A DNA stretch of 64,000 bases, taken from positions 348,565 through 412,564 of the forward strand of contig CAZINT010000001.1 in the NCBI GenBank assembly GCA_964540825.1, written 5' to 3'. The notes under the pieces were generated by a model, which did not search any database, had not been told where the DNA came from, and saw only the letters and a list, made by a program, of their open reading frames with translations. This stretch comes from an uncultured Gammaproteobacteria bacterium. Lineage in GTDB: Bacteria; Patescibacteriota; Patescibacteriia; Magasanikbacterales; GWA2-37-8. The first letter of the stretch is position 1. The number at the start of each line of letters is the position of its first letter. Below are positions 9,912 through 15,500 of the stretch, piece by piece. Position numbers and translations under genes: made by a program.

Positions 9912-10991
9912 ATGAAAATAATTTTTTCCGGTGGCGGAACACTTGGCCCGGTGACGCCGCTCTTGGCAGTTGCCGCTGCCTACAAGCAAGCTCATCCGGA
10001 CGCTGAGTTTATTTGGGTTGGGACAAAGTTTGGTCCCGAGCGTCAAGTCGTTGAAGAGGCTGGTTTAACCTTTTATCCGCTCAATGGTGGAAAGTGGCGC
10101 CGCTATCTTTCGTTTTGGAATATTGTGGATATTATCAAAATTATCGTGGGCTTTTTTCAAGCCATGATTTTTATTTGGTATGAAAAACCGGACTTGCTTG
10201 TTTCTGCCGGCGGGTTTGTCAGTGTGCCGCTGCACTATGCCGGGTCGTTCCTCGGGATTCCAACCTGGGTGCATCAGCAAGATTTGCGCGTCGGTCTGGC
10301 TAATAAGCTGATGTTTAGCGTGGCAACCAAAATTACGGCAGCGCTCGAACAAACCGCCAAGCAACTTCCATCCAAAAAAACCGAATGGATTGGTAACCCT
10401 TCGCGCGAGTTAGTCTGTCAAAATGCCAACCAGGCCTGTACGCATTTTAATATTCCTGCCGGAAGTGTGGTTATTTTTGCGGTAGGCGGGGGGACAGGGT
10501 CGAACACCATCAACCGCATGATCGTCGAAGCGCTGCCGAGCTGGCCAAAAGACTGGCATGTGATTCACTTGACCGGCAAAGAACGTTCCAGTGAATTAGC
10601 GGAGCGTGTGGCAGCAATTTTTCCCAATTACCATGCCTATAAATTTTTTACCGGTGAAATGGCTTGCGCGTATGCACTTGCTACCATCGTCGTTGCCAGG
10701 GCCGGGTTTGCGACGCTCACGGAACTGGCCGCACTTTCAAAAGCCGCCATTATTTTACCGATGGCCGGAACACACCAAGAAGAAAATGCTTCGTATTTTG
10801 CCAGTCAAAGTGGCGTAATCCAATTTCACGAAACCATGGACACCGGTTTAAAATTGGCGCAGGTAATTAAAGAATTAGCAAATGACCCGATGAAGCGCCA
10901 AATGCTCGGCAATAATTTGCATCAGCTGTTGCCTCAAACCGATGATGCAAAAATAGTTGCAATTATTGATGGTTTAATTAAAAAATTCTAA
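9912..10991 (+). CDS. murG: undecaprenyldiphospho-muramoylpentapeptide beta-N-acetylglucosaminyltransferase (GT28)
   Basis: N-terminal 'FSGGGTLGPVTPLLAVAAA', C-terminal UDP-sugar binding 'GGGTGS..ARAGFATLTELAAL' pattern of MurG. Confidence 0.75.
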   Translation: MKIIFSGGGTLGPVTPLLAVAAAYKQAHPDAEFIWVGTKFGPERQVVEEAGLTFYPLNGGKWRRYLSFWNIVDIIKIIVGFFQAMIFIWYEKPDLLVSAGGFVSVPLHYAGSFLGIPTWVHQQDLRVGLANKLMFSVATKITAALEQTAKQLPSKKTEWIGNPSRELVCQNANQACTHFNIPAGSVVIFAVGGGTGSNTINRMIVEALPSWPKDWHVIHLTGKERSSELAERVAAIFPNYHAYKFFTGEMACAYALATIVVARAGFATLTELAALSKAAIILPMAGTHQEENASYFASQSGVIQFHETMDTGLKLAQVIKELANDPMKRQMLGNNLHQLLPQTDDAKIVAIIDGLIKKF

Positions 10992-11002
10992 CGCATACTT
11001 GT

Positions 11003-11548
11003 ATGACTGAATCTATTATTTTTGGCGGTGGGTGTTTCTGGTGTATGGAAGCGGTTTTCCAAATGCTTGAGGGGGTCACCGGTGTTGCTTCCGGCTACAC
11101 AGGCGGCACAATTCCGAACCCAACCTATGAACAAGTGTGCACTGGTCGCACCGGGCATGCTGAAGCGATCAAAATTGATTTTGATCCTGCTAAAATTAAG
11201 CTAACAGATTTATTGGCGGTTTACTTTACATCGCACGACCCAACCACTTTGAATCGGCAGGGGAATGATGTGGGTACGCAGTATCGTTCGTCAATTTTTT
11301 ATAGCACACCCGAACAGCTCGAAATAACTAAAAAATTTATTGCCGAGCTTGAGGCTGATAAAACTTTTTCAGATCCTATTGTTACGACACTAGAGCCGCT
11401 CACTCTATTTTATCCAGCGGAACAATATCACCAAAATTATTACCGCAACAATGAAAGTCAACCATATTGTCAGTTCGTGATTAATCCTAAAATTACTAAG
11501 CTGCGTCAAAAATTTGCGCACTTATTAAAGCCGGGAATGACAGCTTAA
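11003..11548 (+). CDS. msrA: peptide methionine sulfoxide reductase A
   Basis: Catalytic 'GGGCFWCMEAVF' and 'HDPTTLNRQGNDVGTQYRSSIFY' motifs. Confidence 0.85.
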   Translation: MTESIIFGGGCFWCMEAVFQMLEGVTGVASGYTGGTIPNPTYEQVCTGRTGHAEAIKIDFDPAKIKLTDLLAVYFTSHDPTTLNRQGNDVGTQYRSSIFYSTPEQLEITKKFIAELEADKTFSDPIVTTLEPLTLFYPAEQYHQNYYRNNESQPYCQFVINPKITKLRQKFAHLLKPGMTA

Positions 11549-11596
11549 TAGAGGCGTGAAATAAATTTGCAGTTTAGGTGTAATAACAGAATACGC

Positions 11597-11625
11597 TTGC
11601 AACCAATTTTAGTTGCCGGTATACT
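11597..11625 (+). promoter_or_regulatory. sigma-70 consensus promoter (TTGCAA-17-TATACT) upstream of FMN-binding lipoprotein gene
   Basis: TTGCAA 11597-11602, 17-nt spacer, TATACT 11620-11625. Confidence 0.45.
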
Positions 11626-11665
11626 ATTAAAAATTATTTATTATTAACATTAATGCTCTGTTACT

Positions 11666-12250
11666 ATGAGTCAAAAGAATATCAGCAAATTTTTAGCTGT
11701 TTTTTCACTTTTAGCGGTAGCAGTCACTGCTAGTGGCTGCGGCGCAGCTGCCACAGATTCGACTAATGCTACTTTGCCAACGGATACTGGCGCAGCTATG
11801 ACTCCTTCTGATACAGGTGCGGGCGGCGATATTCGGACTGATGAAAGTATGAACGGCGGCCTGGATACGACCCCTCCGGCAACTACTACCGATACCATGA
11901 CGCCTCCTGCCAGTAATCCTCCGGCAGCTGTGCCCGCAGCAAATAAAAGTTCTTATAAAGATGGTACTTACACGGCTGACGGCAGTTACCGCTCACCGGG
12001 CGGCACTGAAGGTGTTGGCGTTACCCTTACCCTTAAAAATGATGTCATTACCAAAGTGACCGTTGTTTCGAAGGCAAATGACCCGATGTCTACTCGTTAC
12101 CAGGGTATGTTCATTGCCGGGATCAGTGATGTAGTTGTTGGTAAAAAAATTAATGAAATTAAAGTTTCTAAAATTTCCGGTTCATCGCTTACTGCCGGTG
12201 GATTTAACGATGCTGTTGTTAAAATTGAGGCTCAGGCTAAGAATTCCTAA
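11666..12250 (+). CDS. secreted lipoprotein with C-terminal FMN-binding (FMN_bind) domain; predicted ApbE flavinylation substrate
   Basis: Lipobox 'LAVAVTASGCG'; Thr/Pro-rich linker; C-terminal domain with 'KISGSSLTAGG' resembling the S-G-A-T flavinylation motif. Confidence 0.55.
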   Translation: MSQKNISKFLAVFSLLAVAVTASGCGAAATDSTNATLPTDTGAAMTPSDTGAGGDIRTDESMNGGLDTTPPATTTDTMTPPASNPPAAVPAANKSSYKDGTYTADGSYRSPGGTEGVGVTLTLKNDVITKVTVVSKANDPMSTRYQGMFIAGISDVVVGKKINEIKVSKISGSSLTAGGFNDAVVKIEAQAKNS

Positions 12251-12264
12251 ACCCACGAATAGGT

Positions 12265-13134
12265 ATGTTTTCGGCTGATTTTGAAGCGATTGGAACGCAT
12301 TGGAAAATTGATATTTTTGAAGAAATTCCAGCCGAAAGCTCCAAAAAAATTATCGAGAAAATAAAAGCCCGTATCGATGTGTTCGATCGGGCTTATTCTC
12401 GTTTTAGGGCGGATTCGCTCGTGACCGAAATGTCACACCGCGCGGGCACCTACACGCTGCCCGGCGACGCTAAGCCGATGTTTGACCTTTATCATGATTT
12501 GTACAAACGGACTAATGGCCGCTTTACACCGCTTATTGCTCAAACGTTGGTTGAAGCAGGGTATGATGCCGAATACTCGCTCCAACCAAAAGCGCTGCAT
12601 CGTCCGCCGACGTGGGACGAAGCGTTTGAGTATGCGTATCCAGAGCTTACCCTCAAACAACCCGCGCTCCTTGACGTGGGTGCGGCAGGCAAAGGGTATA
12701 TTATTGATATTGTCGCCCAAATTCTCTATACTGAAGGCGTAACAGCTTTTTGTGTCGACGCTGGGGCAGATATGTTCTACGCGCACCCTGCCAATAAATT
12801 GCTCGAAGTCGGTTTAGAAAATCCGTTTGATACCACCGAGGTAATTGGTGTGGCTACCATTGCTAATGAAAGTATCTGTGGTTCGGCAGGCAATAGGCGC
12901 GCCTGGAAAAATTTTCACCATATCATTGATCCGTCAACGCTTGCGTCGCCCCGAACGATCGCTGCAGTTTGGACAATTGCCGATAGCGCACTTCTGGCCG
13001 ATGCGCTTTCCACCTGTCTGTTCTTTGTCTCGTCAGCCACGCTTGCTCCGCACTATGATTTTGAATATGTAATTTTGTATCACGATTTTTCTATTGAAAA
13101 GTCACCATATTTTCCGGGCACTTTTTTTAAATAA
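12265..13134 (+). CDS. apbE: FAD:protein FMN transferase (ApbE family)
   Basis: ApbE-like sequence throughout (289 aa) and adjacency to FMN_bind lipoprotein. Confidence 0.7.
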   Translation: MFSADFEAIGTHWKIDIFEEIPAESSKKIIEKIKARIDVFDRAYSRFRADSLVTEMSHRAGTYTLPGDAKPMFDLYHDLYKRTNGRFTPLIAQTLVEAGYDAEYSLQPKALHRPPTWDEAFEYAYPELTLKQPALLDVGAAGKGYIIDIVAQILYTEGVTAFCVDAGADMFYAHPANKLLEVGLENPFDTTEVIGVATIANESICGSAGNRRAWKNFHHIIDPSTLASPRTIAAVWTIADSALLADALSTCLFFVSSATLAPHYDFEYVILYHDFSIEKSPYFPGTFFK

Positions 13135-13146
13135 TTAAATTGTGTA

Positions 13147-13210
13147 GCAGAGTAGGCAGAATAAGTACTAGGCAGAGTAAGTATTTGTTAACTTACTCTG
13201 CCTACTCTGC
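13147..13210. repeat. nested inverted/direct repeat element (two tandem 'GCAGAGTA' units facing two 'TACTCTGC' units); alternative hairpins
   Basis: 13147-13159 pairs 13198-13210; 13171-13182 pairs 13191-13202; the 3' arms overlap so the two stems are mutually exclusive. Confidence 0.5.
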
Positions 13211-13215
13211 TTATC

Positions 13216-14757
13216 TTGCCTAGGACTTATATTATTATGCATTTTATCGATAATTTCCTCAACAAGTTCACGATGTATCGCGTTGTCCTCTACGGCCTCA
13301 CGTTTATTTCAGCGGTTGCTTTTATTCTCAGTTTTTTAAAAATCATCGCGTTCACACCGGCAGAACTCGGCGTTTCATTTGCAGTCCTATTTGTCACCTG
13401 CGCGTCGGTTAATTGGATTTTCGCCAAACTCTTCAAAATTCCGGCAAATGTGGAGTCGGTTTTTATTACGGCGTATATTTTGTTTTTGATTCTTATCCCG
13501 ACGACTGCACTCGCTGATATTTACTGGATGGTTGGCATCGGAGCGATCGCTATGGCCTCGAAGTACCTGCTTGTTTTTCGTAAACAACATCTTTTTAATC
13601 CGGCTGCAATCGCGCTCGTTATTAGTGGGGTGCTGGGAAGCAGCTTATCGTTTTGGTGGGTCGCGACGCCATTGCTGTTGCCGGTGGTCGCTCTCGTTGG
13701 CTTTTTGATTGTTCGTAAAATTCATCGTTTTAATATTGTTATCCCGTTTTTTATTGTCGCGCTCGGTATTTTGGTGGGGAAGGGGCTTGTCGCCGGTGAG
13801 ACGCCGGGAGCGCTCCTCAAAGAATTTTTGTTATCCTGGCCGCTTATTTTCTTTGGTACGGTAATGTTGACCGAGCCACTCACCACGCCCGCCCGTAAAC
13901 ACATGCAAGTACTCTATGGAATTGTGGTGGGTATTTTATTTTCGCTTCATTTTGAATTTAAGCCAATTTTTTCTTCGCCGGAACTGGCGCTCGTTCTGGG
14001 TAATATTTTTTCGGCAATCGCCAGTCCCAAACAACGCATGGTGCTTAAATTTAAAGAGAAAATTAAACTATCGGCCAACATGTTTGAGTTCGTTTTTACT
14101 GCCCCGCGCCATTTGAAATTTATTCCCGGCCAGTATGCCGAGTGGACACTGTTCCACCCTAACCCCGATACCCGTGGAAACCGCCGCTATTTTACGCTTG
14201 CCTCAGCACCCGAAAGCCGCGAAGTCGCCATGGGCATTCGCATTTCCGACCCATCGAGCAGTTTCAAAAAGAAGCTCTGTACGCTTGCTCCCGGGGATAC
14301 GATCATGACCTCGTCCGCCGCCGGTGATTTTGTCTTGCCCCGTGATAAGAATAAAAAAATTGTTTTTGTAGCCGGGGGTATTGGCGTAACGCCCTTTGCG
14401 AGTATCATGCGTCATTTATTGAATACGAAAGAAAAAAGAACTGTAACACAGCTGTACTCGGTGCGTACGTGCGAAGATATTGCCTATCAGCCGCTGTTTG
14501 ACCAGGCAGAAAAGGAACTGGGTATTGTGACCAAATATATCGTTACCGACACTACCTGTGTACCCAAGGGCTGGGACACGCCAACAGGATATATTTCCGA
14601 CCCCACAGTTCGTCAACTGGTGCCGGATTTTAAAGAGCGACTCTTTTATATTTCCGGGCCATTTGTAATGGTAGATGCGACGCAAAAGTTACTCAAAAAA
14701 ATGGGTGTACCGAGTAGTCAAATTAAAACAGATTTTTTCCCGGGGTTTGCGGGATAA
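13216..14757 (+). CDS. polytopic membrane protein fused to C-terminal ferredoxin-NADP reductase-like FAD/NAD(P)-binding oxidoreductase domain
   Basis: About 8 predicted TM helices in N-terminal 280 aa; C-terminal 'RRYFTLASAP' (FAD RxYS-like) and 'IVFVAGGIGVTPFASIM' (NAD(P) GGxGxxP) motifs. Confidence 0.6.
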   Translation: MPRTYIIMHFIDNFLNKFTMYRVVLYGLTFISAVAFILSFLKIIAFTPAELGVSFAVLFVTCASVNWIFAKLFKIPANVESVFITAYILFLILIPTTALADIYWMVGIGAIAMASKYLLVFRKQHLFNPAAIALVISGVLGSSLSFWWVATPLLLPVVALVGFLIVRKIHRFNIVIPFFIVALGILVGKGLVAGETPGALLKEFLLSWPLIFFGTVMLTEPLTTPARKHMQVLYGIVVGILFSLHFEFKPIFSSPELALVLGNIFSAIASPKQRMVLKFKEKIKLSANMFEFVFTAPRHLKFIPGQYAEWTLFHPNPDTRGNRRYFTLASAPESREVAMGIRISDPSSSFKKKLCTLAPGDTIMTSSAAGDFVLPRDKNKKIVFVAGGIGVTPFASIMRHLLNTKEKRTVTQLYSVRTCEDIAYQPLFDQAEKELGIVTKYIVTDTTCVPKGWDTPTGYISDPTVRQLVPDFKERLFYISGPFVMVDATQKLLKKMGVPSSQIKTDFFPGFAG

Positions 14758-14759
14758 AG

Positions 14760-15365
14760 TTAGAGAATTCTTTTGAAAGGTTTTTCGGTGATTTCTCCAA
14801 ATTCATACACCCACGGAATTCCCGTTGGAATTTCCAAAGTAATAATTTCTTCAGGCGTCAGTCCTTCTAATTTCATCACCAGAGCACGCAGACTGTTATG
14901 ATGCGCAGTAACCAAAATATTTTTCCCTTGAGCTAATTCTTTCTCGATTATTTCTTCAAAATGTTTGTGCACGCGCGCAGCGGTATCGGCCAGGCTTTCT
15001 CCCTCGGGTGGGCGCGTATCGTAGCTGCGGCGCCACAGTTTTACCTGCGCTTCGCCGTGAAGTGCGATTGTCTCGGCGTGGGTTTTGCCTTGGAGAGCTC
15101 CATAATGCCGTTCGTTAAGGGCGCTAAAAGTTTGCAGCGGTAGATGTTGTTTGTTAATCGCGGCCAAGGCGATTTTGGCAGTTTCAATAGCGCGAGTCAG
15201 TAGGGAAGTGTGGACTAATGAGATGTCAAAATCAGCGAGTTTTTCGCCAGCCAGGCGAGCTTGCAATTCGCCTTCGGCCGAGAGGGGAATATCGGTTTGG
15301 CCGGTGAAACGGCCCTCGGCATTCCAGAGAGTTTTGCCGTGGCGAAGGAGGATGAGGGTGGGCAT
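14760..15365 (-). CDS. gpmA: 2,3-bisphosphoglycerate-dependent phosphoglycerate mutase (short form)
   Basis: 'LRHGKTLWN', 'LNERHYGALQG', 'LWRRSYDTRPP', 'TAHHNSLRALV', 'IPTGIPWVYEF' match dPGM. Confidence 0.8.
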   Translation of the reverse strand: MPTLILLRHGKTLWNAEGRFTGQTDIPLSAEGELQARLAGEKLADFDISLVHTSLLTRAIETAKIALAAINKQHLPLQTFSALNERHYGALQGKTHAETIALHGEAQVKLWRRSYDTRPPEGESLADTAARVHKHFEEIIEKELAQGKNILVTAHHNSLRALVMKLEGLTPEEIITLEIPTGIPWVYEFGEITEKPFKRIL

Positions 15366-15465
15366 AATTATAATCTAAGTAGCACATCGTATTGTAACAG
15401 GTGAAAAATGGATAAGCAATTGGCAATAAAAAAATAACCTTTTACGGTTACAAATGAAGAGGGCT

Positions 15466-15500
15466 GGGCGGGGCAGCCAGTGTGAGTGGCCGCCCCGCCC
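15466..15500 (-). terminator. GC-rich hairpin downstream of the islet-1 gene
   Basis: GGGCGGGGCAGCC / GGCCGCCCCGCCC arms (one mismatch), T-run on minus strand shortly after. Confidence 0.45.

Follow-up and report, generated by a model that had tools for sequence, protein, structure and literature searches.

A probable Nqr/Rnf-like flavin electron-transfer cassette with a leaderless flavin transferase in a genome of the Patescibacteriota

Introduction

The NQR/RNF-like systems are flavinylation gene clusters that include a protein with PF03116 at its N-terminus and PF00175 at its C-terminus (Meheust et al. 2021, eLife, PMC8238504). (What we say of this paper, of Huang et al. 2024 (mSystems, PMC11334425), and of a review of ApbE (PMC12052999) applies to the sections of them that we draw on.) A cluster was considered to be flavinylation-associated if ApbE or an FMN_bind protein was encoded at most five genes away and at least one carried a signal peptide or a lipobox, and the candidate phyla radiation (CPR) is one of the two main homes of the NQR/RNF-like systems (PMC8238504). 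Both studies propose that electrons travel from NAD(P)H to a covalent flavin outside the cytosol. Huang et al. modeled the two subunits, from Ktedonobacter, with AlphaFold-multimer, and they suggest that the partner's covalent flavin visits a site in the membrane domain where a flavin is held non-covalently; according to the legend of their Fig. 4F-G, the membrane subunit lacks the flavinylated threonine that NqrB and RnfD conserve (PMC11334425). Here we describe three adjacent genes from an uncultured bacterium of the Magasanikbacterales (phylum Patescibacteriota), which lie in a stretch of 64,000 nucleotides (contig CAZINT010000001.1 of assembly GCA_964540825.1, positions 348,565 to 412,564). 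We refer to this whole stretch as the window. The genes probably encode an instance of the two-subunit Nqr/Rnf-like electron-transfer system known from the literature, plus the flavin transferase dedicated to it. Cassettes of this type are already in print from genome surveys, and the find is mostly ordinary except that the ApbE has no export signal.

Two other kinds of systems resemble this one. Flavin-based extracellular electron transfer in Listeria (Ndh2, EetA/B, FmnB, and PplA) uses NDH-2 and a quinone, an ApbE that is a lipoprotein (FmnB), and a dedicated route for exporting FAD. There, as is predicted here, a surface lipoprotein with FMN installed by ApbE is the outward electron carrier, but the system in the window would have neither a quinone step nor an exported ApbE. 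Also, MsrQ-like and PepSY-like proteins with PF00175 are fusions to an NAD(P)H domain that feed a flavinylated protein outside the cytosol, but their membrane domains are haem-binding cytochromes (Meheust et al. 2021, PMC8238504), while the membrane domain in the window appears to have the haem-free RnfD/NqrB fold.

Results

Three open reading frames (ORFs) on the + strand, at 11666-14757 of the window, encode an FMN_bind lipoprotein, an ApbE, and a fusion of a membrane domain to an FNR domain. The original prediction, which was made from the DNA alone, was that these consecutive genes form a flavinylation module, and the domain assignments bear this out. The ApbE and the lipobox-bearing FMN_bind protein are encoded by the two genes immediately 5' of the fusion gene, which fits the published definition of a flavinylation-associated cluster. 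This is the only flavinylation system in the genome, which is 97.8% complete: genome scans found a single ApbE, a single FMN_bind protein, and a single match to PF03116. The features that we discuss are as follows (positions are those of the window).

11597..11625, + strand: TTGCAA-17-TATACT, a promoter-like pair of hexamers in the 117 nt that follow msrA (consensus match only)
11666..12250, + strand: gene 1, predicted NqrC/RnfG-like FMN_bind lipoprotein of 194 aa with a long Thr/Pro-rich linker
11729..11740, + strand: lipobox A-S-G-C, residues 22-25 of gene 1, after the hydrophobic signal segment
12014..12217, + strand: FMN_bind domain, residues 117-184 of gene 1 (sub-cut-off PF04205 and family profile)
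12176..12193, + strand: S-G-S-S-L-T, residues 171-176 of gene 1 (alignment)
12265..13134, + strand: gene 2, leaderless ApbE (FAD:protein FMN transferase), 289 aa (PF02424)
13146..13211, no strand: palindromic repeat in the spacer from apbE to the reductase gene, with further copies dispersed in the genome (folding and genome copies)
13216..14025, + strand: gene 3, N-terminal RnfD/NqrB-like membrane domain, residues 1-270 of the 513-aa ORF (Pfam matches of the family, profile, and fold)
14038..14757, + strand: gene 3, C-terminal NqrF-like FAD/NAD(P)H (FNR) domain (Pfam and relatives in the PDB)
14365-14688, + strand: NAD_binding_1, residues 384-491 of gene 3 (Pfam)

The window copy shares with the published NQR/RNF-like systems (PMC8238504, PMC11334425) the fusion of an RnfD/NqrB-like domain to an NqrF-like PF00175 domain, an anchored FMN_bind partner, and a clustered apbE. 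It differs in having S-G-S-S instead of S-G-A-T, a lipobox as the anchor, an ApbE of about 290 aa, and a palindromic repeat as a spacer. The published structural model is from Ktedonobacter (PMC11334425), and the Ktedonobacteria loci in our set of 80 related loci (described below) are of the S-G-A-T type.

The C-terminal part of gene 3 is the easiest to recognize. NAD_binding_1 (PF00175) matches at 55.6 bits (cut-off 22), FAD_binding_6 matches weakly (14.2 bits), and the best solved relatives of this domain are the FAD/NADH domains of NqrF (7qty, E = 8.9e-13). For the N-terminal 280 residues of the window's protein, hmmscan found no match in Pfam. Among 30 homologs of the fusion protein, 25 do match PF03116. 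A profile search of the PDB with the full-length alignment was dominated by FNR matches, so we repeated it with an N-terminal alignment, and the profile of 25 N-terminal domains matched RnfD of Azotobacter (8ahx_D, E = 3.1e-5). Similarly, Foldseek with the full-length model gave only matches to the FNR domain, so the membrane domain was modeled alone. The AF2 model has a pLDDT of 86.6, and its top 15 Foldseek matches are all RnfD or NqrB (TMq 0.52-0.70). Judging from the profile and the predicted fold, the membrane domain is RnfD/NqrB-like, which we consider to be firm at the level of the family. The original prediction had described a membrane-embedded, FNR-like reductase with about eight transmembrane helices. 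It was right about the fusion and roughly right about the number of helices (the model has about 9-11 helical segments ahead of the FNR domain), but the membrane domain is specifically RnfD/NqrB-like rather than of a generic or ferric-reductase type.

The profile alignment with 8ahx_D places two conserved motifs of RnfD in the fusion protein: FNPA falls at residue 121 of RnfD, and the block M-L-T-E-P-L-T-T-P aligns with A-T-D-P-V-T-S-P of RnfD (TEP/TDP block at 222-328). From the FNPA block to the TDP block, about 70 residues of RnfD are without an equivalent in the membrane domain of the fusion, and the corresponding loop is not conserved across the 30 homologs. We take the flavinylated threonine of RnfD to lie in this region. 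The membrane domain appears to have lost the loop that carries the covalent FMN, which agrees with the published account, and it probably holds a non-covalent flavin. We also considered whether the sequence G-L-V-A-G-E-T-P might be a retained flavinylated threonine of the RnfD/NqrB type. We rejected this candidate because it is not conserved in the 30 homologs and lies in a region without a counterpart in RnfD. A strongly basic segment (S-P-K-Q-R-M-V-L-K-F-K-E-K-I-K) directly follows the last helix, which fits a cytoplasmic FNR domain.

The window's system also has much in common with Na+-NQR and Rnf themselves: the RnfD/NqrB fold, the FNPA and T(E/D)P motifs, an FNR domain that is closest to NqrF, and an NqrC/RnfG-like FMN_bind protein. 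In contrast, NqrA, NqrD, and NqrE and RnfA, RnfB, RnfC, and RnfE are absent from this genome (a scan with PF02508, which represents NqrD/E and RnfA/E, gave no match at E ≤ 0.1 in the 97.8%-complete genome). The FNR part has no 2Fe-2S domain, and the membrane domain has about 270 aa as opposed to 350-415 aa and lacks the covalent-FMN loop. Finally, electron flow is presumed to be one way and outward, instead of semicircular and coupled to ion pumping.

The longest ORF for gene 3 starts at TTG 13216 and encodes 513 aa. The real start is probably ATG 13237, which would give 506 aa, because homologs begin at an equivalent M-x-F-I-D; a conserved I-D-x-F-L-N block agrees with this choice. One database entry for the identical protein was called shorter still, at 494 aa.

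The product of gene 1 has a hydrophobic N-terminus (hydropathy of 2.0 across residues 5-30) and an A-S-G-C lipobox, with Cys25 as the predicted lipidated residue. A Thr/Pro-rich linker follows the signal segment and lipobox and leads to a domain of about 100 aa at the C-terminus. Both Lgt and LspA are encoded in the genome, which makes a lipoprotein plausible. We aligned the window's protein with 29 partners from related loci, and 22 of these 30 proteins match PF04205. The profile of this family matches a solved FMN-binding domain (8p2a_A, E = 4.4e-14) and aligns S-G-S-S of the window's protein on S-G-A-T of 8p2a_A, with Ser174 opposite the flavinylated threonine. Ser174 is thus the predicted flavin acceptor, and the resemblance of S-G-S-S-L-T (residues 171-176) to a flavinylation site, which had been noticed in the original prediction, is supported by this alignment. 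The pattern (S/A)G(S/A)SLT is kept throughout the window's subtype. More broadly, all 70 of 70 FMN_bind partners have an N-terminal hydrophobic anchor or a lipobox, and in all 70 basic residues precede the N-terminal hydrophobic helix.

That gene 2 encodes ApbE is clear: PF02424 matches at 120.5 bits (cut-off 25.6). The protein aligns to solved ApbEs over the GKGY, HxIDPxT, and ADAxxT stretches, which we take to be the FAD and Mg regions. However, this ApbE has neither a signal peptide, nor a lipobox, nor a transmembrane segment, and its N-terminus is the start of the ApbE domain. Only 8 open codons lie upstream of apbE in the window, and among 66 evaluable relatives, 40 have fewer than 15 open codons upstream with any start codon. 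Furthermore, the 67 relatives that are encoded in such clusters all lack a hydrophobic extension at the N-terminus. A hidden membrane anchor can be rejected as well, as the sole hydrophobic stretch in these proteins is the conserved core helix with ADAxxT. The text of the two studies of NQR/RNF-like systems that we draw on does not mention leaderless ApbEs (PMC8238504, PMC11334425).

To see how widespread the cassette is, we relied on a word-based protein search, which gave 5776 relatives at E ≤ 0.001 among 8000 candidates scored, and on a collection with one genome per species, in which 475 of 600 pattern matches encode a relative. We examined the best 80 of these loci and counted partners with HMMs that were iterated over their ORFs. 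ApbE is present in 67 of the 80 loci and an FMN_bind partner in 69. The order FMN_bind, apbE, fusion gene, all on one strand, is found in 64 loci, and 2 more have both partners in another arrangement. In the remaining 14, the fetched DNA is missing at least one of the two partners, and 5 of these loci are cut by contig ends. Within the window's phylum, 27 of 301 sampled genomes, including the source genome, encode the full-length fusion. The distribution is thus patchy, but among bacteria with small genomes the cassette is by no means rare. The original prediction considered it unexpected in a genome with minimal metabolism; this does not hold up, given these counts and given that CPR bacteria are a main home of such systems (PMC8238504). 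Separately, many small genomes of the phylum sample that lack the fusion have an FNR-like protein of about 230-260 aa on its own, which corresponds to just the fusion's C-terminal half (E = 1e-31 to 1e-68). Examples are G087:C1:20911-21606 and G186:C8:47137-47814, and we view these as soluble paralogues.

The cassettes come in two forms. In the majority form, the partner has V-D-x-V-S-G-A-T and a signal-anchor helix, and the ApbE has about 247 aa and starts with M-K-x-T-R-x-L-M-G-M-P. In the window's form, the partner has (S/A)-G-(S/A)-S-L-T and often a lipobox, and the ApbE has about 290 aa and starts with x-F-E-A-I-G-T-x-W. This second form is common to Uhrbacteria, Saccharimonadia, Peregrinibacteria, and the actinomycetes Agreia and Cellulomonas (Actinomycetota). 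On a tree of 75 fusion proteins (quick maximum likelihood, midpoint-rooted, with 4 short ORFs left out), the type of ApbE is a single change (SH-aLRT 100). Therefore, the three genes evolve as one unit. Three genomes from the window's own family, which are the closest ones sampled (loci L083, L084, and L085 of genomes G018, G071, and G158), have the other form, with S-G-A-T and the ~247-aa ApbE, at 44-47% identity. The flanks of these three modules contain no murG, msrA, or gpmA and are unrelated in context. It seems that the module was exchanged, replaced, or separately acquired within one family.

On the same tree, alphaproteobacterial copies (from Mesorhizobium, Kaistia, Phyllobacterium, and Methylocapsa) nest in a clade of Paceibacterota with support of 97-99, and the actinomycete copies (from Agreia and Cellulomonas) group with a copy from Saccharimonadales with support of 99. 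These placements hint at transfer between CPR bacteria and organisms that may be their hosts, with the caution that this tree was quickly made and midpoint-rooted and that several labels of metagenome-assembled genomes look unreliable.

Between apbE and the fusion gene, at 13146-13211, there is a nested hairpin of about 70 nt with a folding energy of -40.9 kcal/mol (z = -6.0; none of 200 shuffles was as stable). The genome contains at least 9 other copies of this palindromic repeat, at 72-82% identity and E < 1e-5. It looks like a REP/MITE-like insertion into the operon, because the two genes abut or overlap in most related loci. An Rfam scan of 10900-15500 found no riboswitch, and its only sub-threshold matches were on the repeat.

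As for the surroundings, msrA lies upstream on the same strand and ends 117 nt before the module, and gpmA lies downstream on the other strand. Position 11597, which the original prediction gave as the start of its interval, falls on the -35 hexamer of the promoter-like site in the gap after msrA. Sites of this type (TTGCAA-17-TATACT) are not in excess in the region: 9 were found, and 8.2 are expected from shuffles.

Discussion

If the homology and the literature are good guides, then the cassette would work as follows. The FNR domain of the 506/513-aa protein would lie in the cytoplasm and oxidize NAD(P)H on its FAD. The electrons would cross the membrane through the RnfD/NqrB-like domain, probably by way of a non-covalent flavin, and would arrive at an FMN that is covalently attached to Ser174 of the NqrC/RnfG-like surface lipoprotein. 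ApbE would attach this FMN, with FAD as the donor, and the outward-facing flavin would reduce an extracellular acceptor. The original prediction of a route from cytoplasmic NAD(P)H to an ApbE-flavinylated protein outside the cytosol is also the published reading of this type of cluster (PMC8238504, PMC11334425).

Several observations weigh against our assignment of the locus to this system. First, two of the assignments rest on relatives and fold because the matches of the window's own proteins are below the cut-offs: in a whole-genome scan, PF03116 matches the membrane domain at 20 bits (E = 1.9e-4, cut-off 27.7), and PF04205 matches the lipoprotein at 17.6 bits (cut-off 22). Second, the acceptor motif of ApbE is [S/T]GA[S/T]-like (Huang et al. 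2024, PMC11334425), and S171-G-S-S174 fits this pattern at three of four positions, with serine in place of alanine. The longer motif Dxx(s/t)gAT, which the original prediction proposed to look for, is present only in part: in the stretch S-K-I-S-G-S-S the aspartate six residues before the acceptor is a serine, and the alanine is a serine as well. Third, apbE and the fusion gene abut or overlap in most related loci, while here a repeat separates them. Fourth, neither an acceptor gene nor a metal-transport gene adjoins the window copy, whose neighbors are msrA and gpmA. Fifth, the ApbE is leaderless, yet its only recognizable substrate is an exported lipoprotein. Sixth, the genome has a flavokinase domain (102.6 bits; G000:C5:21962-22318), but its FAD-synthetase domain (G000:C2:78077-78268) scores just 20.1 bits (cut-off 27), although both ApbE and the FNR domain would need FAD. 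Finally, the path of the electrons, their acceptor, and their direction are inferred, and in the sections that we draw on, neither Meheust et al. 2021 nor Huang et al. 2024 offers anything experimental on any NQR/RNF-like member (PMC8238504, PMC11334425). Our search of the literature found no paper that joins ApbE, flavinylation, and Patescibacteria.

If electrons do reach the surface, what do they reduce? The genes that recur near the cassette in the 80 loci are histidine kinases (19), OmpR-type regulators (15), ABC ATPases (17), and HlyD-type adaptors (10), along with some metal transporters: Nramp in 3 loci, VIT1 in 4, and heavy-metal P-type ATPases in 5. One possibility is that the cassette is an assimilatory metal (ferric) reductase: Fe(III) would be reduced by the surface flavin outside the cell, and the Fe(II) would enter through importers of the Nramp type. 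Among the hints from gene context to the acceptor or the function in the window's subtype, the clearest is that Nramp lies directly downstream (by 21-136 nt, on the same strand) in L008 and in both Uhrbacteria loci of the window's subtype (L026 and L027; the Nramp of L027 scores 267 bits in Pfam). Also, there are two Nramp genes elsewhere in the window's genome, and Meheust et al. found VIT1 in 6 of 127 clusters and suggested iron assimilation (PMC8238504). On the other hand, metal-transport genes are neighbors in at most 12 of the 80 loci and not beside the window copy, and neither VIT1 nor P-type ATPases import metals; they serve in export or storage. We rate as about equally likely, and hold just as tentatively, that the cassette is an electron outlet that balances fermentation. 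It would send electrons to oxygen, quinones, humics, or the surface of a host and would regenerate NAD(P)+ without a respiratory chain. The genome's lack of NqrD/E and RnfA/E and its single RnfD/NqrB-like match would fit such a role, and so would a cassette that is widespread, self-contained, and usually without a dedicated acceptor gene. The two-component sensors and regulators (in 19 and 15 of the 80 loci) suggest conditional use, and the published proposal is of generic electron export (PMC8238504, PMC11334425). But just 27 of the 301 genomes sampled from the phylum (about 9%) carry the fusion, so it is not a core device for redox balance.

We are far more doubtful about two other explanations. 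It would be surprising if the FMN_bind domain faced inward, with the whole system, ApbE included, on the inner face of the membrane (for example as an NAD(P)H:membrane-acceptor reductase). Although this arrangement would remove the paradox of where ApbE is located, the lipoboxes here and in several relatives, together with Lgt and LspA, imply export, and the basic residues that precede the N-terminal helix in 70 of 70 partners favor an orientation with the N-terminus in and the C-terminus out. Also, NqrC and RnfG are extracytosolic in solved complexes, the AlphaFold-multimer model places the partner outside the cell (Huang et al. 2024, PMC11334425), and no quinone-linked machinery was detected in the genome. 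Even harder to believe is the suggestion in the original prediction that the module feeds electrons to the repair of methionine sulfoxide. It is true that msrA is on the same strand and ends 117 nt upstream, but no more than 3 of the 80 loci have an msrA within 6 kb, and the three loci in the same family lack it. Furthermore, the MsrA in the window has no signal peptide or hydrophobic segment and is a standard cytoplasmic MsrA (223 bits), and this type normally uses thioredoxin. We consider the adjacency to be coincidental.

With the lipoprotein taken to be outside the cell, the leaderless ApbE remains a puzzle, and it is universal in this type of cluster. The review of ApbE describes cytosolic ApbEs only with cytosolic substrates (PMC12052999). 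For example, the ApbE of Klebsiella pneumoniae also lacks a signal peptide, but its substrate is a cytoplasmic fumarate reductase (PMC12052999), whereas the only recognizable substrate of the window's ApbE is exported. We looked for another target in the form of conserved [S/T]GA[S/T]-like sites in the cytoplasmic parts of the fusion protein and did not find one: across the 30 homologs, the invariant Ser and Thr residues are, by our reading, all in standard FNR motifs. Because the genome's only ApbE is leaderless and its substrate is exported, the covalent flavin would have to be installed by an unconventional route. Among the possible resolutions, we lean towards flavinylation before or during export, although we would not bet on it: ApbE may act in the cytoplasm and place FMN on Ser174 of the lipoprotein precursor before or during its passage through Sec. 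Alternatively, ApbE might leave the cell by an export route that is not yet known. As a variant of the cytoplasmic reading, ApbE may be a stoichiometric, cytoplasmic subunit of the complex, because apbE abuts or overlaps the reductase gene in most loci. Natural fusions might have fixed the location of ApbE, and we found one longer homologue, of 563 aa; the absence of others is weak evidence. We rejected this protein as informative because its ApbE part ends abruptly in unrelated sequence and it looks chimeric.

For CPR bacteria that lack respiratory chains, this cassette is one of few candidate routes to export electrons or to reduce metals for uptake. As a minimal model of how electrons cross a membrane, a two-subunit system that relies on flavins alone would be attractive, although this idea is already in print. 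If flavinylation does occur in the cytoplasm and is followed by export, then a cell with a minimal genome would be spared any route for exporting FAD. The assumption that flavoproteins outside the cytosol obtain their flavin only after export would then be overturned as well, and our view of how these proteins mature would change.

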